A DNA stretch of 24,000 nt from Promethearchaeota archaeon (GTDB lineage Archaea; Asgardarchaeota; Lokiarchaeia; Sigyniarchaeales; Sigyniarchaeaceae). A model generated the notes under the pieces. The model searched no databases, was not told where the DNA came from, and worked only from the letters and a program-made list of their open reading frames with translations. Below, one piece after another: positions 2,681 to 12,376 of the stretch. The DNA is taken from contig JBGLND010000001.1 of NCBI GenBank assembly GCA_041305945.1, positions 1,427,753 to 1,451,752 of the forward strand. Reading direction: 5' to 3'. Position 1 is the stretch's first letter; every line of letters begins with the position of its first letter. The position numbers and the translations under genes were made by a program.

Positions 2681-3223
2681 ATGCCGCAAAAACCAGATTA
2701 TTACGACAAGTTAATACGAAATGTCCCCGATTTCCCGAAGAAGGGAATCCAGTTCAAGGACATCACCACGCTCATCAAGGACCCCAAGGGGCTAAAGAAT
2801 GCCATCGACGACATGGCTGCTGCCCACAAGGACAAGAAAATCACGAAGGTCGTGGGCATCGAATCCCGCGGTTTCATCTTCGGATCGGGCATCGCCTACC
2901 AGCTCGGGGTTGGGTTCATTCCCATCCGGAAGCCCGGGAAGCTCCCTGCAAAAACCGAGGCCATGGAATACTCGCTGGAATATGGCACCGACAAGATCGA
3001 AATCCACGTGGATGCAATCAGCAAGGGTGACAACGTGCTTATCGTGGACGATTTGCTTGCAACGGGAGGAACCGCTGCCGCTGCAACCAAGCTCGTCGAG
3101 AAACTCGGCGGGAAGGTGGCAGGGGTCGCTTTCGTGATCGAGCTGGCGGGCAGCCTTCACGGGCGCGACTTGCTTAAGGGGTATAACATCACGAGCCTCG
3201 TGAAGATCGACGTTCACGAGTGA
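2681..3223 (+). CDS. apt: adenine phosphoribosyltransferase
   Basis: 180 aa. Carries the PRPP-binding loop VLIVDDLLATGGT plus the blocks FKDITTL and ESRGFIFG. Lies 41 bp downstream of mtnP on the same strand. Confidence 0.9.
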   Translation: MPQKPDYYDKLIRNVPDFPKKGIQFKDITTLIKDPKGLKNAIDDMAAAHKDKKITKVVGIESRGFIFGSGIAYQLGVGFIPIRKPGKLPAKTEAMEYSLEYGTDKIEIHVDAISKGDNVLIVDDLLATGGTAAAATKLVEKLGGKVAGVAFVIELAGSLHGRDLLKGYNITSLVKIDVHE

Positions 3224-3798
3224 TGCACCCGCTTCTCTTCCACGTTTTTTTTCACTTTTTCCTTGCACCTCGTGCAGAACACGGCATGTTTCATGTCGGT
3301 GTCATGTATGCTGTTCGAAAAGGACATCACGCATAGCGGATCGTTGCAGTGCCTTGCACCGAGCACGTGCCCGATTTCGTGGGCGGCTTCCTTGAAGACG
3401 CGCTCGTTGAACAGGTCCTTGTTGGGCAGGAAACCGTGAAACTCGGGACGCAAGCGGAACGTCGAGATCACGCAGCTTGTACCCCCCACGCGGGCCTCGC
3501 CGAAGATGAAATTGAGTGCTGGCCTCGTGTCGGAGAAAAGGTCCACCTCCACGACCCCCAAGGCAACAGCATTCGGTCCCTGCTTGCAGTGCAATCCATC
3601 GAGGTAGGCCAAGTACGGGCCGCTCGGTTCCTGGTTCCTCGTTGGATTGATGGCATTCAATGCTTGCACGTGGCTCACGTGGATGTCGATCGAGCATCCG
3701 AGCATCGTGAAAAGCTTCTTCAAGTATAAAAGCAACCGTGGTTCGAGACGGGCATCACCGATCCCGAAAATGACGACATGCAACTCCAAGCTGGCCAT
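3214..3798 (-). CDS. amzA: archaemetzincin (zinc metalloprotease)
   Basis: HEIGHVLGARHCNDPLCVMSF...FCTRCKEK matches the archaemetzincin signature HExxHxxGxxHCx4CxM...CxxC. The ORF track starts at a TTG (3819); the first ATG is at 3798 (MASLELHVV). There is a 10-bp convergent overlap with apt. Confidence 0.85.
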   Translation of the reverse strand: MASLELHVVIFGIGDARLEPRLLLYLKKLFTMLGCSIDIHVSHVQALNAINPTRNQEPSGPYLAYLDGLHCKQGPNAVALGVVEVDLFSDTRPALNFIFGEARVGGTSCVISTFRLRPEFHGFLPNKDLFNERVFKEAAHEIGHVLGARHCNDPLCVMSFSNSIHDTDMKHAVFCTRCKEKVKKNVEEKRVHHS

Positions 3799-3847
3799 CC
3801 TTGGATGGAATGAATACAACGAATGGAAAAAAACTCGCTGGTACCGG

Positions 3848-6799
3848 TCAGCTCACGACCGGCAGCACGATGCAAGACGGGTACATGCCCCCCGTGAGCA
3901 CGGAATTGTTCGCCACGTTGAAACTCGACGGGTGGTTCGTGAACGCGCCCGAGTGGTTGGGATGGCGCTCGAACCGCGGGTAATTGCTCGACGAGATCGC
4001 GATCGTGATGCGATGTCCCGTGTTGAACTGGTACGCGGTCGACCACAAGTCCACCGATATCTCGTAGGCTTGCCCACCAATCATGTCTGGTGCGGTGATG
4101 TTATAACCATCCCGCGAACGCATCACGAGGATGCCATCCAGGATGTTATAGCAGCTGCCGTTCTGGTACCGGTCCATGAGCATCACGGTGAATGCCGTGT
4201 CGGTGCAGTTGGACGCGACCCAGAGGCTCGCCCGGACGTTGCCCACCACCGACAGCGGGAATGGCAGGGGGGCCGATTCGAACACGAGCACGTCGCTTCT
4301 TGCCAAGTTCCTGGCAGCGGCTTGGTCGTACGGGCCCGTGCCGACAAACTGCTCAACGCGATCGGGATGTTTGTCACCGTCCCAGTTGTTGAACCCGAGT
4401 GCATCGAGCTCCAAGGAGGCATAATCCGCCATCAGGTTATTACCACCCTTCGTGAGCACCGGGTAGCGGGGATCGTACAAGCATGACACGTTCGCGTTCC
4501 CGGCAGGGTTGCTATCGATCAGCGAACCGTTGGACGCGACGTACAACACCCGCGTCGAGTCGTTGGCCGGCCACCCGCTCGCGTAGTACCACTTGTTGGC
4601 ACCCGTGACGGATGAGGGCTGGTTCACGTCGCCCATCAAGTAATAGGCAACGCACGGTTCGGACCAGTTGACCGGGGTGCCGGCCAATGCCGCCGATCGC
4701 ATCTCGTTCTCCCACCCCGCGTGACGGCTCTCATCGGCGCGGGGGAAGGCAAGGGACGTTGCGTTGAAAACCGGGGTTAACACGCCAAACTTTCCGTGCC
4801 CGTACGGCCCCATGACCAGACGCTGCTTCCCCAGCGCGCCTGGCCCGCCGTGGTAGTTATACCCGATGAACCCGTCGATCGTGCCTTGCGAGCAGATGTC
4901 GTACCAGCCGCCGAAATGGATTGCGCTCACGTTCACCGACGCGTACCTGTGCCCCATGGACAGGGACGTGGTGTTCCACGACGCGTCCTTTACTTGGTGG
5001 GACACGATCCAGTCGATGGCATCCGAGTACTCGGTTGCACGGCCTGGCGAGTTGTCCTTCCAGATGGTATAGACCCACGACTCGAGCATAGCTTTCCTGA
5101 AGGCGCCGCCTTGGAAGATCATGTGGTCGTAGAGCTCCGGCGCCCCGACACTCAGGGTTTGGAATTTCAGCGCGCCGGATGGCTCATCCGCGTAGCAATA
5201 CTGGTTGACCGTGCCGGCAGACGCGCCTGTCGAAGCAATGTTCCCGTTACACCAGGATTGATTCTTGATCCACGCCACGGTCTTTGCACCGTCGAACCGG
5301 TCATCGATGAACGGGATGAACTTGCCTTCGGACTGGTACCGACCCCGCATGTCCTGGTACACAACGGCGTATCCCGCCTTGACCAAGTCGAGGACCCCCT
5401 TGTTGGTAGCAAGGTTTCCCTTGTTGTAGGGCGTCCGCAGCAAGATGACGGGTCTCGGGATCGTATCGCCCCGCTGCCGGTAAACATCGGTCGCGAGCAA
5501 GGTGCCATCATCCATGGCGAGGTATTCAGTCTTGTAATCAACGGCGACGTACGCGTCGACCATCATATACCCGATGAAGGGAGCAAGGACGATCGTAGTT
5601 ACCATGGCGGCCTTCAAGGCAATCGGGACCTTGTCCGCAAGTTCATGCTTTGCTTGCCTGAGCACCGCCTCGATTGTACGGGAGACTCGACCCCGGGAAC
5701 GGAGCCTTGCTCCAATGGCATACCGTGCGGAGAACACGGCGATCAAGAGCGAGATGATGACAATATACTGAGGGGCATTCTTGTCAGTCCCCGTGATGGT
5801 CATGTACGATGTTGCAGCAAGGGCCAGGAAGGGAATCGCGTACTTGAAAAACCCGCCGGTGATGGTACCGATGACCACCACGCCCTTGAAATTGCTCCGC
5901 TTTGACGTTGCGATCAGGTGGGACCCGCCGTTGATGAGTGAATATCCCACCACGGCAATGGCAAGAACGAGATGAAGCATGCCAATACCCGCGAAGATCG
6001 CTTCCTTGCCAGCGAACCATGCCCAGTCTTTACCATTATTTCGCCATTCTTCACTTGCTTGACCGGAATCAAGCGATTTTTTGCGATTGAACGTGAAATA
6101 ATTCACCAAGTAACTGGTAACAAAGACGATACGACCAACAATTGCAAGAGCAAGATAGACGTCCCGGCCCGCGACCATGTTCGGTTTCACGAGCCCCCGG
6201 TCGAACAAGACCACCAAGGGCACCTTGAACCCGGCACGATCGAGCGCCTCGTCAACGATACCCTTCAAGGGAACGGGCTTGCCCGCCCTGTGCCCCGCGT
6301 CCGCGCAGACGAGTACCTTCGGTTTCGCGTCGTCGATGCGGATGGCCAACGATTCGGTGCTGAAGCCCGCGAACACGATGCTGTGGATGGCGCCGATGCG
6401 GACGCACGCCAGGGCGGCGATGCATGCCTCGGGAATCATGGGCAGGTAGATGATGACCCTGTCGCCTTTATTCACGCCCGAATTCTTCAAGACGCTGGCA
6501 AACTCGACGACCCTTTTTAATAGTTGCCCATAGGTTATGATTTCCTCCTTGTTGACCTCGGAGCTCACCCATATGTATGCAGGTTGGTCTTTCTTTTCTG
6601 CTTCGACCCACCTGTCTACCGCGTTGTAGCAGGTGTTGGTGATGCCACCCACGAACCATTTATAAAATGGTGGTTTCGATGCATCCAATATTCGATCTGG
6701 TTTCTTGTACCAGAAGATTTTTTCAACGACCGGCTTCCAATATTCTTCCGGTTTCTCCACTGAAAGCTTGTGAGCGACTTGATATTTCGACATGGACAT
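3848..6799 (-). CDS. chimeric protein: acyl-CoA synthetase (PrpE/Acs-like) N-terminal fragment + ~5 TM helices + CocE/NonD (S15 X-Pro dipeptidyl-peptidase-like) hydrolase
   Basis: Residues ~37-250 of the tracked ORF (6158-6799) resemble the first ~250 aa of propionyl/acetyl-CoA synthetases (PPFYKWFVGGITNTCYNAVDRW, GDRVIIYLPMIPEA, RIGAIHSIVFAGFS, RIDDAKPKVLV, GRDV), but the YTSGTTGKPKG P-loop is absent. A hydrophobic block occupies 5558-6157. The hydrolase occupies 3851-5557 (ILLRTPYNKG, VVYQDMRGRYQSEG, GxSxG as GASAG). The ORF track extends to a GTG at 6907; ATG 6799 (MSMSKYQ) fits the family N-terminus. Confidence 0.7.
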   Translation of the reverse strand: MSMSKYQVAHKLSVEKPEEYWKPVVEKIFWYKKPDRILDASKPPFYKWFVGGITNTCYNAVDRWVEAEKKDQPAYIWVSSEVNKEEIITYGQLLKRVVEFASVLKNSGVNKGDRVIIYLPMIPEACIAALACVRIGAIHSIVFAGFSTESLAIRIDDAKPKVLVCADAGHRAGKPVPLKGIVDEALDRAGFKVPLVVLFDRGLVKPNMVAGRDVYLALAIVGRIVFVTSYLVNYFTFNRKKSLDSGQASEEWRNNGKDWAWFAGKEAIFAGIGMLHLVLAIAVVGYSLINGGSHLIATSKRSNFKGVVVIGTITGGFFKYAIPFLALAATSYMTITGTDKNAPQYIVIISLLIAVFSARYAIGARLRSRGRVSRTIEAVLRQAKHELADKVPIALKAAMVTTIVLAPFIGYMMVDAYVAVDYKTEYLAMDDGTLLATDVYRQRGDTIPRPVILLRTPYNKGNLATNKGVLDLVKAGYAVVYQDMRGRYQSEGKFIPFIDDRFDGAKTVAWIKNQSWCNGNIASTGASAGTVNQYCYADEPSGALKFQTLSVGAPELYDHMIFQGGAFRKAMLESWVYTIWKDNSPGRATEYSDAIDWIVSHQVKDASWNTTSLSMGHRYASVNVSAIHFGGWYDICSQGTIDGFIGYNYHGGPGALGKQRLVMGPYGHGKFGVLTPVFNATSLAFPRADESRHAGWENEMRSAALAGTPVNWSEPCVAYYLMGDVNQPSSVTGANKWYYASGWPANDSTRVLYVASNGSLIDSNPAGNANVSCLYDPRYPVLTKGGNNLMADYASLELDALGFNNWDGDKHPDRVEQFVGTGPYDQAAARNLARSDVLVFESAPLPFPLSVVGNVRASLWVASNCTDTAFTVMLMDRYQNGSCYNILDGILVMRSRDGYNITAPDMIGGQAYEISVDLWSTAYQFNTGHRITIAISSSNYPRFERHPNHSGAFTNHPSSFNVANNSVLTGGMYPSCIVLPVVS

Positions 6800-6968
6800 C
6801 CTCGCTTTGCTGATGCAAGATTGATGGGTTATTCTGGTGATGCTCGCACGGGCGGCTGACCTCCCGTGCATGGCATAGCCTTGCTTGAAATATCTTGTTC
6901 TATTCACTTATAATAGTACACATGTTAACGCACCATGGTTAGTAGATATTTGATGGAGTTACACGGCG

Positions 6969-7874
6969 ATGGTTCTCAAGGCAGGCGATCACGTGATCAT
7001 CAGCGGGGGAAAAAAGCACGAGTGGTTCGTCCAGCTGGCTCCCGGGAAAGCATTGCACACCCATGCCGGCATCATCCCGCACGATGGCATCGTGGGAAAG
7101 GAATTCGGTGACATGGTCGGCACGACCAATACTGGCGCCCAATTTATACTAGTAAAGCCACTGATGCACGATATTTCCACGCGGTTCGCCCGAAAAACGC
7201 AGATCGTCTACCCAAAGGATACTGGCTACGTTATAATGAACGCGGGAATCGTTCCCGGCTCGCGGGTGCTCGAAGCAGGGACAGGCTCGGGGGCAATGAC
7301 GTCGCTGCTGGCATCCATCGCCGGGGCGAGAGCACCGGGGCGTGTCGTGTCGTTCGAGGTCGTTGAAAAGCACCACGAGGCCGCGAAACGAAACCTGGCA
7401 TTGGCGGGTCTTTCTGGCGTCGTTGACATGCGGCTCGGTGACTTGCTCGATCCCGCAGTGCAAAAGAGCCTTGAAATGGAAACCCCATTCGACGCGTGTT
7501 TCTTCGACATGCCATCGCCGTGGGACGTCGTCGACCTTGCCCACGCGGTACTCGTGCCGGGCGGCGTGTTCTGCTCGTTCTCCCCCGTCATCGAGCAAGT
7601 CAAGAAAATCGTTGCCACGTTGAAACTTGGTAACTGGACCCGCGTCGAGGCCGTTGATTTGCAGTTGCGCACGTGGCAAGTGAAGGACAACGCCACCCGG
7701 CCTGCCTCGCACGGCCACCACACCGGCTACCTGGTGTTTGCCAGGAAGACGAACGTGAAACCACCCTTGGAATGGGATAGGAAGGTGCGGAAGGCGTTGA
7801 ACAGGGAGCTTGCCGAGCAAGGCTTGATCCCCGACGAAGTGGACGACGGTGCCCTCGATTTCCTTGATGAATGA
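6969..7874 (+). CDS. trmI: tRNA (adenine58-N1)-methyltransferase, TrmI/Gcd14 family
   Basis: N-terminal beta domain (GDHVIISGGKKHEWFVQL...HTHAGIIPHD), the block QIVYPKDTGYVIMNAGI, the SAM-binding motif VLEAGTGSGAMT, and C-terminal HTGYLVFARK. Carries an acidic ~45-aa C-terminal tail. Confidence 0.8.
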   Translation: MVLKAGDHVIISGGKKHEWFVQLAPGKALHTHAGIIPHDGIVGKEFGDMVGTTNTGAQFILVKPLMHDISTRFARKTQIVYPKDTGYVIMNAGIVPGSRVLEAGTGSGAMTSLLASIAGARAPGRVVSFEVVEKHHEAAKRNLALAGLSGVVDMRLGDLLDPAVQKSLEMETPFDACFFDMPSPWDVVDLAHAVLVPGGVFCSFSPVIEQVKKIVATLKLGNWTRVEAVDLQLRTWQVKDNATRPASHGHHTGYLVFARKTNVKPPLEWDRKVRKALNRELAEQGLIPDEVDDGALDFLDE

Positions 7875-7875
7875 G

Positions 7876-7910
7876 CCAACGAACGAACCAACGAACCAAC
7901 CAACGAACGG
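7876..7910. repeat. imperfect tetranucleotide CNAA tract (CCAA CGAA CGAA CCAA CGAA CCAA CCAA CGAA CGG)
   Basis: Read directly in the 70-bp spacer between the trmI stop (7874) and the next start (7945). Confidence 0.6.
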
Positions 7911-7944
7911 ATTAACGAGCGACCTGTAAACGGAGTACAAGAAA

Positions 7945-8604
7945 ATGCCCTCGAGATGGCGCGTCCGGCGCGTGTTCCGGCCCGTGGTGCTTGGAATCGC
8001 CCGTGGCCTTGCACGTGCGGGATTGTCCCCCAACGGCGCCACGGGACTCGTCTTGCTCCTTTCATTCGCAGCGTTTTTTTACGAGGTGCTCCTGCCGTTG
8101 CCCGTGACGTGGCTTACTGGCCTCGGGTTTGCGCTGCTCGTGTTCGTGACAGGCATCATGGACGGGGTGGACGGCGCGATCGCGCGCCAGACCGGGAAGC
8201 AATCCAAGTTTGGGGGCGTGCTGGACTCGACGGTCGATCGCGTATCGGACGCGCTCGTGTTCTGCGCGCCGGCGTTCCGCGACCTGCTCGTGAGCGATGT
8301 CGTGAATGGCCAACTAGCATGGCTGCCCGGCTTGGATGTCATTCCATTGTGGTTCTGGTCGACGTTCCTCGTGATCGGGGCATACTTGACCAGTTACGTG
8401 CGTGCTAGGACGACCCTTGCCGATGCAACGGTCGACACGGACGTGGGTGCACTCGCGCGATCCGAGCGCCTCCTTTGCGTCGTGATAGGCACGGCATGCG
8501 GCGCGCAATGGATCACGATCATCGCCTTGGCCCTCCTCACAAACGTGACGGCGATCCACAGGTTACGTGTTGCTCGAAACGGCTTGGCGCAGAAGGAGAA
8601 GTAG
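7945..8604 (+). CDS. CDP-alcohol phosphatidyltransferase (archaeal lipid head-group synthase type)
   Basis: Exact family motif DGx2ARx8Gx3Dx3D, seen as DGAIARQTGKQSKFGGVLDSTVD. Multi-TM hydrophobic profile, 219 aa. Confidence 0.85.
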   Translation: MPSRWRVRRVFRPVVLGIARGLARAGLSPNGATGLVLLLSFAAFFYEVLLPLPVTWLTGLGFALLVFVTGIMDGVDGAIARQTGKQSKFGGVLDSTVDRVSDALVFCAPAFRDLLVSDVVNGQLAWLPGLDVIPLWFWSTFLVIGAYLTSYVRARTTLADATVDTDVGALARSERLLCVVIGTACGAQWITIIALALLTNVTAIHRLRVARNGLAQKEK

Positions 8605-8640
8605 GAACGCGTGGAATGACCACCCGCCGGCACGCGCGAT

Positions 8641-8880
8641 TCATCCTTGCTTTTTATCCTGATCCGATTGGAACAACTTGAACTCCCCCTTGATCTTCGA
8701 CCGCTCTTTCTTGTCGGCCGAGACTTTTTCGAACGAGAGGATGACCGGCGCGTCGCCCTGCAAGGCCGCGTTGATGAAATTGATGAAACCGATTTGCTGG
8801 GTCGGGGGAATGTTAATCTTGAGCTCTATGGGCTTGCGCTGCTTCGGGCTTGTCGTGGATAACACGAGTTTGATTCTCAT
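8641..8880 (-). CDS. hypothetical 79-aa protein; strand-strand-helix-strand-strand pattern (possible beta-grasp), ends in Gly
   Basis: ATG-initiated ORF (8878-8880) downstream of the gelsolin-TM gene on the same strand. Sequence is MRIKLVLS..KPIELKINIPPTQQIGFINFINAALQG..APVILSFEK..GEFKLFQSDQDKKQG. There is no GG terminus and no motif I can name. Confidence 0.4.
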   Translation of the reverse strand: MRIKLVLSTTSPKQRKPIELKINIPPTQQIGFINFINAALQGDAPVILSFEKVSADKKERSKIKGEFKLFQSDQDKKQG

Positions 8881-9054
8881 GCTTTTACCGATCTCCGTGC
8901 TGGTGTGATGATCTAGCGGTCGTGGATTAAAAACACGGCCACAACGGGGCCGGGCGGAACGAACGTTGCATGATGCGAACGCGCCATGTTCTTGGGCATC
9001 CTTGACGCGTGAATCCCGTGAAAAAAGGCGTGAAAAAGAGAAAATAGATGATGT

Positions 9055-9786
9055 TTATTCTTGCGCGATGCGCACGAACTCTGCTACAACACCCAACGTG
9101 AACGGCACGAACGCGACAAGCTCCATGAGTAAAATCAACAACTGGAACACGTCAAGCATCCCGACCCCTGTCAAATCTGGTCGCCAGTTGTTGATGTAGA
9201 GAATGGTAAGAACGCCCACGCCGAGCCCTACAGCCAAGGTAATGACCATGTACGTGCGCTTGGACAGTGCCGAGAAGAGCGCCGCGACGCCGAACGCGAT
9301 CATGCCGAATGCCGTCATCCACGTGAGGGTTTCCAGCCAGCAGTTATTTGCGCTTGAACCACCCAGCATCCCCGCGAAGATGCACTCGTAAGAGTTTGCC
9401 TGGTATGTTGCCAAGTCCATGCTGTATAGCGTGTAAATGATGAAGACAGCCAAGCCGACGCCAGCAAGCCCGGCAACCATGCCTGCAATCGCGAATATCC
9501 GGGTCTTCCCCTGCCCGAGCGGCGAGCCGAGCAACCGCTTGATTTCTTGCTGCAATTCCGGTGCCGGGTTCCTTCCCACCTTCTGGAATTGGAAGCTAGA
9601 ATAGCGATCTCGCAATGAAAGCAAGAGTTTCTTTGCTTCATTCTGATCCTTGATTTTTGATTTCGGGCCATGCCAAATATAAATTACACGTCCTTCCGTG
9701 TCGACAAGCAGCGCGACATCACGCACGCTCAAACGAGGGGACTCTATCCATTTCCCAGCCCTGAACACGTAAGCGAATACTCTCAT
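9055..9786 (-). CDS. gelsolin-like domain protein with four C-terminal transmembrane helices
   Basis: The N-terminal ~90 aa show gelsolin-repeat landmarks: DVALLVDTEGRVIYIWHGPKSKIKDQNEAKKL...FQKVGRNPAPEL (compare gelsolin G4 IIYNWQGAQST...VVQGKEPAHL). Four hydrophobic helices follow: IFAIAGMVAGLAGVGLAVFIIY, WMTAFGMIAFGVAALFSAL, YMVITLAVGLGVGVLTILYI and LLILLMELVAFVPFTLGVV. The ORF track starts at TTG 9813; the first ATG is 9786 (MRVFAYVF). Confidence 0.7.
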   Translation of the reverse strand: MRVFAYVFRAGKWIESPRLSVRDVALLVDTEGRVIYIWHGPKSKIKDQNEAKKLLLSLRDRYSSFQFQKVGRNPAPELQQEIKRLLGSPLGQGKTRIFAIAGMVAGLAGVGLAVFIIYTLYSMDLATYQANSYECIFAGMLGGSSANNCWLETLTWMTAFGMIAFGVAALFSALSKRTYMVITLAVGLGVGVLTILYINNWRPDLTGVGMLDVFQLLILLMELVAFVPFTLGVVAEFVRIAQE

Positions 9787-10286
9787 GTTGTTAACCTTCT
9801 CGTCATTCTTCAACTTTCTTGCAAGGGCGTGGAAGCATTCCCGGGCGTCTCGATGAATCGTGAAGATAATTGCCTCGTGGAAAACCTTGCAAGTCTTCGT
9901 ACTATGTCTAATTTTTGGCTAATGAGCTTTAAATATTTTTCAAAAAAAAAAACCCTACCCTCAAACCACATTTGTCCGGTAAAATAGTTATTCCCTCTCT
10001 CACCTTTCACGCTGATTTTTAAAATAGGACTATCCAGCGGTGTTTCAAGCAAACAACACCATCATGGTCGAGCTGCGTGATTGGCACGATCATGATCTGG
10101 AATTTCGGGTCGTTTCAACCATTATTTTATTCCAGCATCGTGGCGTCGTGCATGTTAGTGTCGTCGAGGTGGAGGACCTCCAGCCCCGACAAGCCTTCGA
10201 GGAACACGCCGAGGTGGTTGAAATAGTTGCCCGATAACGGGAGCTATTTTTTTTTGTAAGCGTCTATTCTATTCATTAGAAGAATA

Positions 10287-10376
10287 TTGAAATGCCTTGA
10301 AATGCCAAAAATGTTGCTGAAATGCCCAGAAATGCTATAGATTTTACTGAAATGACAAAAGTGTTGTGAAAATGCC
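10287..10376 (+). repeat. 10-bp-phased array of YTGAAATGCC units (6 strong, 3 degenerate) overlapping the E2 promoter and start
   Basis: Units start at 10287 ttgaaatgcc, 10297 ttgaaatgcc, 10307 aaaaatgttg, 10317 ctgaaatgcc, 10327 cagaaatgct, 10337 atagatttta, 10347 ctgaaatgac, 10357 aaaagtgttg and 10367 tgaaaatgcc. The last unit contains the E2 ATG (10372). Unit 6 (TATAGATTTTA) is TATA-like. Confidence 0.8.
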
Positions 10377-10866
10377 GTCCCTCCCACTCCCCATCTGGCA
10401 AGAACGAGTCAAGAACGAGCTCGATGTGCTTCGTAATATGAATGCATTGGTCGAGAGTTCGGTTCAAGATTTTGGCGAAACGATACAATTTCTTATCAAC
10501 GTGCGTGCGAAAGGCTTGGTGAAAGATACGAGCAACAAGCTGGTCCCCATGATGGATCACCAGATCCAGATCGAGATCAACCGGGACTTCCCGTATCCCG
10601 GTGGCATCAAGTTCCTTTGGCGTTCACCTATTTTCCACCCGAATATCGACCCGTACGAGACAGGTTACATTTGCCTCAACGTGCTCAAGAAATGGTCGCA
10701 GCTGAGCGACTTGAGCACCACGGTCAAGGCCCTGACAATGTTGATAACGCACCCGAACCCCGAGGATCCCTTGAACTATCCCACGTGCTTGGAAGCGGCC
10801 AAGTATTTCTTCGAGAACCCGCCATCGGAAGAATCGAACGACGATGACATCCTCGTCATCGATTAA
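10372..10866 (+). CDS. ubiquitin-conjugating enzyme E2 (UBC fold) homologue
   Basis: Landmarks are RVKNELDVL (helix 1), FPYPGGIKFLWRSPIFHPNID with HPN at 10636-10644, catalytic Cys in TGYICLNVL (TGC 10672-10674), KKW and HPNPEDPLN. The ORF track starts at GTG 10366; ATG is at 10372. Confidence 0.85.
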   Translation: MPSLPLPIWQERVKNELDVLRNMNALVESSVQDFGETIQFLINVRAKGLVKDTSNKLVPMMDHQIQIEINRDFPYPGGIKFLWRSPIFHPNIDPYETGYICLNVLKKWSQLSDLSTTVKALTMLITHPNPEDPLNYPTCLEAAKYFFENPPSEESNDDDILVID

Positions 10867-10888
10867 CATTCGTTCGTGTTATATTTCC

Positions 10889-10896
10889 TTTTTTTT
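10889..10896 (+). terminator. oligo-T tract (T8) 22 nt after the E2 stop
   Basis: CCTTTTTTTTCAC read directly; archaeal-type oligo-T termination signal. Confidence 0.45.
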
Positions 10897-11107
10897 CACG
10901 TTCCCTCGCTTGGCACACTGGATAAGCGGCATCTCGTGACGCTCGACCCACGATCGTACCGCATCGAGCTCCCGAGTCGTCGTAGGCGTGTAGATATTTA
11001 TTAATGCTTGTAGCGCAAGAATTTCTTAATATACGCTTGAATTACAACCAACGATTATGGCATTGAACATTGTTGGAATACACCACGAGAAACGAGCATG
11101 AGGCATC

Positions 11108-12376
11108 ATGGGAACGTTCGTAGCATATGTCCTGATGGGCGAGGAAGACTTCGTACCCACCAATAAATTAGAAGAGGATCAAGTCGCGTTCATCATTGAC
11201 ATGGAAAAGAAGATCATCTATGCTTGGCACGGGCGCAATTCGAGCAAGCTCCAGCAATACAAGTGCGGGACCAACGCCACGAAATTGAAGTCGAAGCTGC
11301 ACTACTATGGCTTCGGCACGGAGATTATCAAGCAAGGTGGCGAGCCTGCCGAGGTGGCCGTGGAGGTCGAGGAGTTGCTCGCAGGGAAGGGCGAGATACC
11401 GTCCAAGATAAAGGAGACGATCACCGAGGAAGCAATCAAGACGGGCAAGATCGCTGCACCATCATCCGTCGCGGTGCAACCGGAACCAGAGGAACACGTG
11501 GTGCGGCCATCATCTCGAGCAGAACCCCCGCAACCAAGCAGCCTCAAGCCATCCCTTGCCGAAATCGCACGCGTCGAGGCAGAACGCCGGGCCACGATGA
11601 CCACGGAATTGAAACGAGCCGAAGACCTTGCACGGGTCAAGGAAGACAATGAACGACGTGCAAGGGGCGAGGCCCGCGAGAAAGAAGCCGAGGCCTTGTT
11701 GCTGAAACGCAAGCTGGATGAAGAAACGCGGTTCTTGGAAGCTGAATCACGGAAGACCGAGCAGCTCGAGGAAAAATTGAAACAGGAATCGCTCGAGCGC
11801 CATCGCCTCCAGAAATTGATGGAGAAAGAACGGGAGGACATGCGCAAGGAGTACGAGACCCGCATACAGGACGAGATCAAGGCGCGCGTTGACGAGGAAC
11901 AAAAGAAAACCTTGGAATTGCAAGAAGAACTCGATCGCGTGAAGAAAGAACGGGACGATGCCATCAAGTCAAAGGAGCGGGAGATCGAAGAGACCAAGAA
12001 GGACATCGAGACCCTCATGATGGACAAGGACCAGCAGCTCAAGGAACAGATCGATAAGGAGCGGCAAGAGCTGGCGTTGGCCAAGGATGAAGAGAAGGAA
12101 GCCATCAAGGCTCGATATGCCAAGGAAAAGTCGGAGCTCGAATCAAAGGTTAGCGACGAGCAGAAGTCGTTGGAGGCAAAGCTCGAGCAAGAACGCCAGA
12201 TGCGACTGTCCTTGCTCGACCAGGCCTCCCGCGCAGCGCAAGAAGCGGTCGAGCGCGAGGAAAAGGTTCGCGAGGAGGTCGAGAGCAGCGTCCGTGCAGA
12301 GATGGATGCAAAGCTTGCCGCCGAGCACGTTGAAAAGGAACGCCTCGAGAAACGGCGATGTGCGGCCCGCGCATGA
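11108..12376 (+). CDS. gelsolin-like domain protein with Pro/Ser linker and ~260-aa E/K/R-rich coiled coil
   Basis: The N-terminal ~95 aa read DQVAFIIDMEKKIIYAWHGRNSSKLQQYKCGTNATKL...EIIKQGGEPAEV (gelsolin-repeat pattern, paralogous to 9055-9786). The linker is APSSVAVQPEPEE..PPQPSSLKPS. From ~11555 to ~12352 there is an uninterrupted charged heptad-like sequence (EAERRATMTTELKRAEDLARVKEDNERRARGE...EKERLEK). Confidence 0.7.
   Translation: MGTFVAYVLMGEEDFVPTNKLEEDQVAFIIDMEKKIIYAWHGRNSSKLQQYKCGTNATKLKSKLHYYGFGTEIIKQGGEPAEVAVEVEELLAGKGEIPSKIKETITEEAIKTGKIAAPSSVAVQPEPEEHVVRPSSRAEPPQPSSLKPSLAEIARVEAERRATMTTELKRAEDLARVKEDNERRARGEAREKEAEALLLKRKLDEETRFLEAESRKTEQLEEKLKQESLERHRLQKLMEKEREDMRKEYETRIQDEIKARVDEEQKKTLELQEELDRVKKERDDAIKSKEREIEETKKDIETLMMDKDQQLKEQIDKERQELALAKDEEKEAIKARYAKEKSELESKVSDEQKSLEAKLEQERQMRLSLLDQASRAAQEAVEREEKVREEVESSVRAEMDAKLAAEHVEKERLEKRRCAARA

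Follow-up and report, generated by a model that had tools for sequence, protein, structure and literature searches.

Gene organization of the locus

A stretch of 24,000 nucleotides from contig JBGLND010000001.1 of the Promethearchaeota archaeon assembly GCA_041305945.1 (positions 1,427,753 to 1,451,752, forward strand; Lokiarchaeia, family Sigyniarchaeaceae), referred to below as the window, was analyzed with a focus on one gene of its reverse strand. The product of this gene consists of a predicted N-terminal gelsolin-homology (GH) domain, a short basic linker and four predicted transmembrane (TM) helices, and is designated here GH-4TM. Coordinates of the parts of GH-4TM and of the genes around it are given in Table 1.

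Table 1. GH-4TM, its predicted parts and the genes of its surroundings in the window (CDS, coding sequence; aa, amino acids; AF2, AlphaFold2; pLDDT, predicted local distance difference test; K/R, lysine and arginine)
Feature	Position	Strand	Characteristics
GH-4TM protein, complete CDS	9055..9786	-	243 aa; ATG at 9786, stop codon 9055-9057
Predicted GH domain, residues 1-88	9523..9786	-	AF2, Foldseek and family-profile matches
Juxtamembrane linker, residues 89-96 (PLGQGKTR)	9499..9522	-	basic, nearly invariant in orthologues
Predicted TM helix 1, residues ~97-120	9427..9498	-	hydropathy peak 2.41; AF2 helix 89-122
Loop 1, residues ~121-150	9337..9426	-	K/R-poor; variable in length and sequence; predicted extracellular
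Predicted TM helix 2, residues ~151-174	9265..9336	-	hydropathy; AF2 helix 144-174, pLDDT ~91
Predicted TM helix 3, residues ~178-201	9184..9255	-	hydropathy peak 2.38; AF2 helix 178-201
Predicted TM helix 4, residues ~210-237	9076..9159	-	hydropathy peak 2.48; AF2 helix 210-242
Small companion protein	8641..8880	-	79 aa; basic lysine-rich C-terminal tail; adjoins GH-4TM genes
CDP-alcohol phosphatidyltransferase, archaetidylinositol-phosphate-synthase-like	7945..8604	+	Pfam PF01066; NCBIfam NF040950
Ubiquitin-conjugating (E2) enzyme homologue	10366..10866	+	Pfam UQ_con, E 7e-15
Second gelsolin gene, GH and charged coiled coil (1DGelX-like)	11108..12376	+	translation; GH match

The list of open reading frames (ORFs) also gives a longer version of the gene, 9055..9813 on the same strand, with a TTG start codon. 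Since all homologues start at the N-terminus MRVFAY (alignment A1), the ATG at 9786 is considered the true start. In public data, 33 close homologues of GH-4TM were found, with an identity of 59–90%; all of them are unannotated ('hypothetical'), and a Pfam domain was assigned to none. Those with names belong to metagenome-assembled genomes (MAGs) of Sigynarchaeota, Lokiarchaeia, Hodarchaeota or 'Promethearchaeota'. Among species representatives of GTDB, a search with the orthologue alignment revealed an orthologue in only two, namely, Ca. Sigynarchaeum springense and a bin assigned, probably wrongly, to Bathyarchaeota.

The window ORF is collinear with 28 homologues across all 243 residues, and every invariant residue of alignment A1 is kept in it. 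Codon comparison of five orthologues showed saturation of synonymous sites, with 0.82–0.96 differences per synonymous site (pS), while differences per nonsynonymous site (pN) amounted to 0.04–0.14 in the N-terminal domain and 0.26–0.41 in the membrane part. The existence of 33 close homologues and the purifying selection evident from low pN against saturated pS show that 9055–9786 is a real conserved gene and not a chance ORF. Its G+C content at third codon positions (GC3), 0.67, is close to the values of 0.69–0.85 in the other genes measured, and a foreign origin of the gene is not supported. Scanning of the window for Rfam families and tRNA genes gave no match.

Gelsolin-homology domain

The core of the N-terminal domain, encoded at 9667–9717, comprises residues 24–40 (VALLVDTEGRVIYIWHG) and contains the gelsolin 'WxG' signature in the form W38-H39-G40. 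Akil et al. took this signature as a marker of calcium-binding gelsolin domains (PMC9433394). The same residues, 24–40, form the stretch that aligned to the repeats of villin, ProGel and 2DGel in the profile search. The Pfam family Gelsolin (PF00626) gave no match to the window protein even at E ≤ 10; the protein lies below the gathering threshold of the family and is a divergent member beyond current Pfam coverage. Because PF00626 misses it, the domain could be assigned only by means of a family profile and structure modelling.

In a search against PDB with a profile of orthologues only, CapG (E 0.01), Thor ProGel (0.22) and Loki 2DGel were the only non-membrane matches. Profile A2, built from 45 sequences of remote relatives, matched villin with E 1.1e-11, all six villin repeats being matched at least weakly, as well as ProGel (2.5e-7), Loki 2DGel (2.7e-4) and gelsolin (0.01). 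PF00626 was matched by three of these 45 relatives, with the best E of 0.00099, and was the only Pfam family recurring among them.

The first AF2 model was based on close orthologues only; pLDDT of its GH domain was as low as 63–70, because the domain hardly varies among orthologues, and its top PDB match was still ProGel. This model was replaced by one obtained from a diverse alignment of the 45 relatives, with pLDDT of 87.3 overall and 96–98 in the GH domain. The domain is modelled with strands at residues 3–9, 12–15, 24–29, 34–39 and 66–69, a long helix at 45–61 and a short helix at 76–86; the resulting order, beta-beta-beta-beta-long helix-beta-short helix, is the order of gelsolin, whose fold is a mixed beta-sheet packed between a long and a short helix. 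All the best 50 Foldseek matches in PDB (50/50) were entries with gelsolin-family proteins, with a probability of 1.00 for 49 and 0.99 for one, and no Sec23/24 chains were among them. The list was led by Thorarchaeota (Thor) 2DGel3 (7c2h_G, E 1.7e-4) and Thor ProGel in complex with actin (7c2f_B, E 1.8e-4), the latter with a template modelling score of 0.72 normalised to ProGel; superposition on the latter gave a root-mean-square deviation of 2.8 Å over 86 columns.

Residue D23 is conserved in more than 90% of sequences across the whole family, as is G40, and no other position reaches this level. By manual alignment with gelsolin, which does not allow reliable assignment of calcium sites, D23 would correspond to the type II aspartate position of G1/G2. 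In the same alignment, D47 would occupy the position of the helix glutamate of gelsolin, where the broad family shows no conservation. As judged from profile matches and the structure model, residues 1–88 represent a single gelsolin-homology domain.

Membrane domain and predicted topology

Kyte–Doolittle analysis with a window of 19 residues gave four hydropathy peaks of 2.4, 1.8, 2.4 and 2.5 in the remaining part of the protein, and the four corresponding helices of the AF2 model have pLDDT of ~85–94. Four hydrophobic segments occupy the same positions in most of the ~43 remote relatives described below. No Pfam family was found for the membrane domain, and its PDB matches were insignificant. 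In the preceding linker, columns L90, G91, G93, T95 and R96 are invariant in alignment A1. Loop 1 of the window protein contains two cysteine residues and has the lowest pLDDT of the model, 58–63; it is the most variable and the least confidently modelled part of the protein, as expected of an outward-facing loop. A short, predicted cytoplasmic turn S-K-R (residues 175–177) precedes TM helix 3, and a short tail, also predicted to be cytoplasmic, follows TM helix 4.

The mean number of lysine and arginine residues in 29 orthologues was 4.1 before TM helix 1 (residues 82–96, 15 residues), 0.59 in loop 1 (~23 residues), 1.8 in loop 2 (3 residues) and 1.0 in loop 3 (~11 residues). Members of the broad family have a long, basic C-terminal tail with 8.1 such residues. 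No N-terminal signal sequence was found ahead of the GH domain. Since positive charges are abundant before TM helix 1, in loop 2 and in the C-terminal tail, and are rare in loops 1 and 3, the GH domain is placed in the cytoplasm; the predicted topology is N-in/C-in with four TM helices.

The preliminary description, made from the sequence alone, had delimited the gene at 9055–9786 and proposed a single N-terminal gelsolin-like repeat with its core at 9667–9717 and four hydrophobic helices in the C-terminal ~150 amino acids. The gene limits proved exact, the ATG at 9786 being supported by the N-termini of homologues. The repeat was borne out by the WxG signature, profile A2 and the AF2 model with Foldseek, and the helices by hydropathy peaks of 1.8–2.5 and the modelled helices. 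Modelling of the N-terminal domain with structural comparison, which had been proposed as a test, returned the gelsolin fold with the pLDDT and the PDB matches given above. The whole conserved family, the near-invariance of the GH domain and the conserved neighbours (the small protein, the archaetidylinositol-phosphate-synthase-like enzyme and the 1DGelX-like protein) had been missed.

Family distribution and conservation

An exhaustive phmmer search with residues 1–99 against 1.84 billion cluster representatives revealed relatives in 53 clusters (50% identity). In ~43 of the 53, the proteins are 218–352 amino acids long and carry a GH domain at the extreme N-terminus, followed by four hydrophobic segments, while the remaining clusters consist of proteins of 92–120 amino acids or fragments. 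All members of this family are labelled 'hypothetical', with no Pfam assignment. The GH domains of remote relatives are 23–39% identical to that of the window protein. The taxonomic labels of family members, which for the remote relatives rest on few named cluster members, are all Promethearchaeota/Lokiarchaeota, apart from one labelled only 'archaeon'. On the evidence of these sequences, the combination of a GH domain with four TM helices is a conserved, Asgard-restricted family and not a one-off.

Conservation of the two parts of the protein is uneven. Pairwise comparison of 26 full-length orthologues gave a mean identity of 95.7% for residues 1–96 versus 56.8% for residues 97–243. Across residues 21–96, 59 of the 76 positions are invariant in 29 sequences, including most of the linker GSPLGQGKTR. 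The products of flanking genes are only 45–79% identical between the same loci, the GH domain being far more conserved. The GH domain is under very strong purifying selection. A constraint of this kind would accord with a partner that is itself very conserved, such as Lokiactin, which is described as highly conserved (PMC9834061).

Synonymous differences in the GH part exceed 0.75 per site among orthologues, and this divergence suggests that codon usage differs between the genomes carrying them.

Genomic neighbourhood

In orthologous loci (L001–L006, L010–L013), the gene order is TrmI, CDP-alcohol phosphatidyltransferase, a small gene on the opposite strand, GH-4TM, E2 (UQ_con) and a gene for a protein of 703–790 amino acids, followed in L003–L006 by GlmS. 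The small companion protein is 76–90 amino acids long in orthologous loci and 76–97 including distant members. Its homologues, 32–65% identical, are located beside GH-4TM in L001–L013. In the distant loci L007, L008 and L009, the companion gene is adjacent and divergently transcribed (32–38% identity), and the other neighbours are unrelated. No match to the companion was found in Pfam, NCBIfam or PDB. A relationship to the GH domain was ruled out by profile–profile comparison, and a ubiquitin-like nature, considered in view of the E2 gene nearby, was rejected, as the protein has no C-terminal Gly-Gly and no profile match. Two tandem copies of the companion gene are present in L002.

The phosphatidyltransferase of the window gave its best NCBIfam match with NF040950 (E 5.5e-32, 111 bits, under the 180-bit cutoff). 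For the recurrent phosphatidyltransferases of related loci the best NCBIfam match was always archaetidylinositol phosphate (AIP) synthase, with 111–134 bits against the same cutoff of 180. The AIP-synthase-like gene is adjacent to GH-4TM in orthologous loci and in two distant ones, L007 (117–764), where it lies upstream, and L009 (6790–7431), where it follows GH-4TM at a distance of 10 bp in the same orientation; it is absent at L008.

The E2 gene is syntenic with GH-4TM in eight of the ten orthologous loci (L001–L006, L012–L013); the contigs of the other two, L010 and L011, end inside the GH-4TM gene. L010 and L011 represent the closest relative with genomic context, and in both a gene for a 504-amino-acid GTPase of the Ras/Roc/Arf family (3915–5429 and 2977–4491, respectively) lies between the small companion and GH-4TM. 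The E2 homologue belongs to the eukaryotic signature proteins; no ubiquitin, E1 or E3 was seen among the window genes scanned. Immediately upstream of the E2 start at 10366, the sequence TGAAATGCC occurs on the forward strand at 10288–10356 as three exact copies and one near copy within 70 bp. The copies begin 10, 20 and 30 bp apart, and the expected number of exact 9-mers is ~0.2 per window. These repeats may represent an array of regulator-binding sites.

The second gelsolin gene is located two genes from GH-4TM. Its GH domain is 29% identical to that of GH-4TM (E 5e-9), and this N-terminal domain is followed by a highly charged coiled-coil region of ~300 residues; domain X of 1DGelX is likewise predicted to be a coiled coil (PMC7444086). 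Homologues at the same position of related loci are 703–790 amino acids long versus 422 in the window, so that the gene of the window may be a shortened version or contain a frameshift near 12.1–12.6 kb.

In the paralogous subfamily represented by L014 and L016, the gene directly downstream (2696–3703 and 4504–5544, respectively) encodes a HEAT/Adaptin_N-like repeat protein of 335–346 amino acids. The two HEAT-repeat proteins are 31% identical to each other (E 7e-48), and the small companion gene is absent from these loci.

Possible rearrangement of the window

The GH-4TM gene alone is inverted in the window, while the flanks 6969–8880 and 10366–12376 retain their order and orientation. In all ten related loci (L001–L006, L010–L013), GH-4TM shares its strand with TrmI, the AIP-synthase-like gene and, in the loci that have it, E2. 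The only inverted repeats found flanking GH-4TM are a 15-nt pair with 80% complementarity (9021–9035 / 10005–10019), probably a chance occurrence, and intergenic DNA is too diverged for mapping of the inversion breakpoints. Either a single gene was truly inverted here, or the assembly is wrong at this point.

The ORF at 3848–6907 on the reverse strand (1019 amino acids) is apparently chimeric. It contains only the first 214 residues of an acetyl-CoA synthetase (6155–6793, 73% identical to the enzyme of L003) and runs on in frame into a Peptidase_S15/PepX_C hydrolase, whereas related loci encode an intact synthetase of 624–631 amino acids. This ORF marks a rearrangement breakpoint or a contig chimera. 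The inversion of GH-4TM, together with a nearby gene that is truncated and fused, indicates that the contig is rearranged or partly misassembled.

Comparison with known systems

Three architectures of Asgard gelsolins have been described, ProGel, 1DGelX and 2DGel, with no membrane-integral form among them (PMC7444086), in agreement with the preliminary description, which had named the known forms as soluble and the membrane form as not known to be characterised. The window protein fits none of the three. It shares with ProGel (Thor, 7c2f chain B), the prototype of Asgard gelsolin/cofilin proteins with one domain, a single GH domain of ~90 residues and the IY-W-G core motif. In ProGel, however, this domain constitutes the whole soluble protein of ~90 amino acids, while the window protein of 243 amino acids adds the basic linker and four TM helices, and sequence identity between the two is only ~17–20%. 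ProGel is without calcium sites (PMC7444086). The likeness to 1DGelX (PMC7444086) consists in one N-terminal GH domain joined to a C-terminal non-gelsolin module that could position it; the extension of 1DGelX is a soluble coiled coil, and that of the window protein a bundle of four hydrophobic, predicted TM helices.

2DGel, as well as gelsolin, villin, CapG and adseverin, belongs to the same domain superfamily, and the modelled fold of the window protein matches gelsolin domains G1–G6. 2DGel and eukaryotic gelsolins contain 2–6 GH repeats, WH2-like linkers and type I/II calcium sites, whereas the window protein has one repeat; neither a second GH repeat nor the WH2-like LRRV/LKDV motif of 2DGel was found in it. 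Members of the gelsolin/villin group are soluble or peripherally associated with membranes through phosphoinositides, while GH-4TM is predicted to be membrane-integral. No description of a membrane-integral gelsolin was found in the open-access full-text literature on Asgard gelsolins, which does not prove that none exists; the GH and four-TM architecture would thus be a new, fourth type of Asgard gelsolin.

Transmembrane anchors with a small cytoplasmic domain binding a cytoskeletal polymer are known in bacteria, namely, RodZ for MreB and ZipA for FtsZ. The analogy with GH-4TM is only functional, as RodZ and ZipA are unrelated to it in sequence and fold, are bitopic and do not have four TM helices, and bind MreB or FtsZ and not actin of the eukaryotic type. 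The gelsolin-like domain of Sec23/Sec24 in the COPII coat is an example of a GH-type fold at the membrane surface without actin binding. There it is part of a soluble coat subunit of five domains, and the other four (zinc-finger, trunk, beta-barrel and helical) were not found in the window protein with Pfam.

Proposed function and alternative explanations

Asgard actin filaments follow the periphery of the cell and extend through long protrusions (PMC9834061), and Asgard archaea crawl using actin filaments (bioRxiv 10.1101/2025.11.30.690169). No protein attaching Lokiactin to the membrane is named in the Asgard actin literature searched; the preprint on crawling motility notes that Lokiactin co-immunoprecipitation under-represents transmembrane proteins (bioRxiv 10.1101/2025.11.30.690169). 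We lean, with reserve, towards the reading that GH-4TM is an integral-membrane anchor or regulator for Lokiactin, its actin binding being deduced from homology. In ProGel and gelsolin G1, the long helix occupies the actin cleft between subdomains 1 and 3 (PMC7444086), and the GH domain of GH-4TM would bind Lokiactin in the same way. Owing to its membrane anchorage, the domain would keep actin monomers or the barbed ends of filaments at the inner membrane face, and GH-4TM could serve as an anchor, cap or nucleation site for filaments of the cell periphery and protrusions. The cytoplasmic placement of the GH domain, as predicted, is a precondition for such a link. Regarding the 'actin-membrane linker' of the preliminary description, the architecture and the predicted orientation agree with the proposal, while actin binding or severing would follow from homology.

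Several points weigh against this reading. The single-domain ProGel binds rabbit actin weakly, with a dissociation constant (Kd) of about 337 µM (PMC7444086), so that strong binding of actin cannot be taken for granted in a lone GH domain. The window protein escapes PF00626, as stated above, and its N-in/C-in topology is a prediction. The small-companion and AIP-synthase-like neighbours are both absent in five other subfamilies (L014–L018), so that the neighbourhood is not diagnostic of the family in its entirety; linkage with the small protein characterises one large branch of the family and not every member. Synteny among the close orthologues may reflect mere relatedness. With respect to affinity, in 1DGelX a C-terminal extension turns the weak binder into an active severing protein with Kd of 7.7 µM (PMC7444086); in GH-4TM, weak binding by a lone GH domain could be offset by confinement to the plane of the membrane, by possible oligomerisation of the helical bundle and by the companion protein. 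The small basic-tailed companion would act as a cofactor, and the neighbouring inositol-phospholipid synthase might, speculatively, provide lipid-dependent control, like the phosphoinositide control of eukaryotic gelsolin. A dedicated Asgard module for actin anchoring, in which GH-4TM, the basic-tailed companion and the inositol-phospholipid synthase couple Lokiactin to the membrane under lipid control, is a tentative and rather doubtful extension of this proposal.

Alternatively, the GH fold may have been recruited for a partner other than actin, so that the protein serves as a membrane scaffold, for example in a coat or trafficking assembly, as in Sec23/Sec24. We regard this as possible, though unlikely. 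It would agree with the HEAT/Adaptin_N-like gene directly downstream in the paralogous subfamily (L014, L016), with the E2 enzyme and small GTPases nearby and with the weak actin binding of ProGel alone; moreover, the constant companion in the subfamily of the window type is a small protein of no known function, and binding of several partners at once could account for the near-invariance of the GH domain and linker. However, Sec23/24 accounted for none of the 50 best structural matches, all of which were entries with actin-binding domains of the gelsolin, villin, adseverin or CapG type or with Asgard gelsolin domains; the top sequence matches are villin repeats and ProGel, and a 1DGelX-like actin regulator is encoded in the same locus. 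GH-4TM might also mainly regulate or scaffold the synthesis of membrane lipids together with the AIP-synthase-like enzyme, the GH domain being a module for binding of lipid headgroups or of the enzyme. GH-4TM has the AIP-synthase-like gene as a neighbour in all orthologous loci and also in two distant subfamilies (L007, L009) with otherwise unrelated neighbourhoods, and eukaryotic gelsolin binds phosphoinositides. Yet this linkage is missing in L008 and L014–L018, the scores of the enzyme (111–134 bits against the NCBIfam cutoff of 180) leave its substrate uncertain, and the neighbour may be the housekeeping lipid synthase of the genome. A role in lipid synthesis, which we consider improbable, is in addition compatible with actin binding and does not exclude it.

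An outward orientation of the GH domain (N-out), with binding of an extracellular or cell-surface ligand, is very improbable. Although the topology is predicted only and loop 1 is variable, like the surface loops of receptors, the 95-residue folded domain is not preceded by a signal peptide, and the distribution of lysine and arginine (~4 before TM helix 1, S-K-R in loop 2, few in loops 1 and 3) follows the positive-inside rule for an N-in/C-in protein; in addition, the GH domain is near-invariant, in contrast to the fast-evolving loop 1. The likelihood that the ORF is non-functional, that is, a chance ORF, a fusion artefact or a pseudogene arising from local inversion, is minute. The gene is indeed inverted relative to all related loci, and a nearby gene is truncated and fused, but the ORF is of full length, collinear with 28 homologues and in possession of the invariant residues, its GC3 is comparable to that of its neighbours, and the same architecture recurs in ~43 independent clusters.

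Significance

The Asgard actin regulators characterised so far are only soluble profilins and gelsolins. GH-4TM is a concrete candidate for the link between Lokiactin and the membrane; its GH domain is small and, as a soluble domain, could be expressed alone, and relatives of the protein occur in MAGs of Promethearchaeota/Lokiarchaeota. Were the GH domain to prove unable to bind actin, the family would nevertheless illustrate reuse of the gelsolin fold at membranes, comparable to Sec23/24. Since GH-4TM recurs next to an inositol-lipid synthase, it can be asked whether actin regulators were already controlled by lipids before eukaryotes arose. Should the module of GH-4TM, companion and lipid synthase be real, it would be a pre-eukaryotic counterpart of phosphoinositide-regulated actin–membrane attachment and a missing link between the actin cytoskeleton and the protrusions of Asgard archaea.

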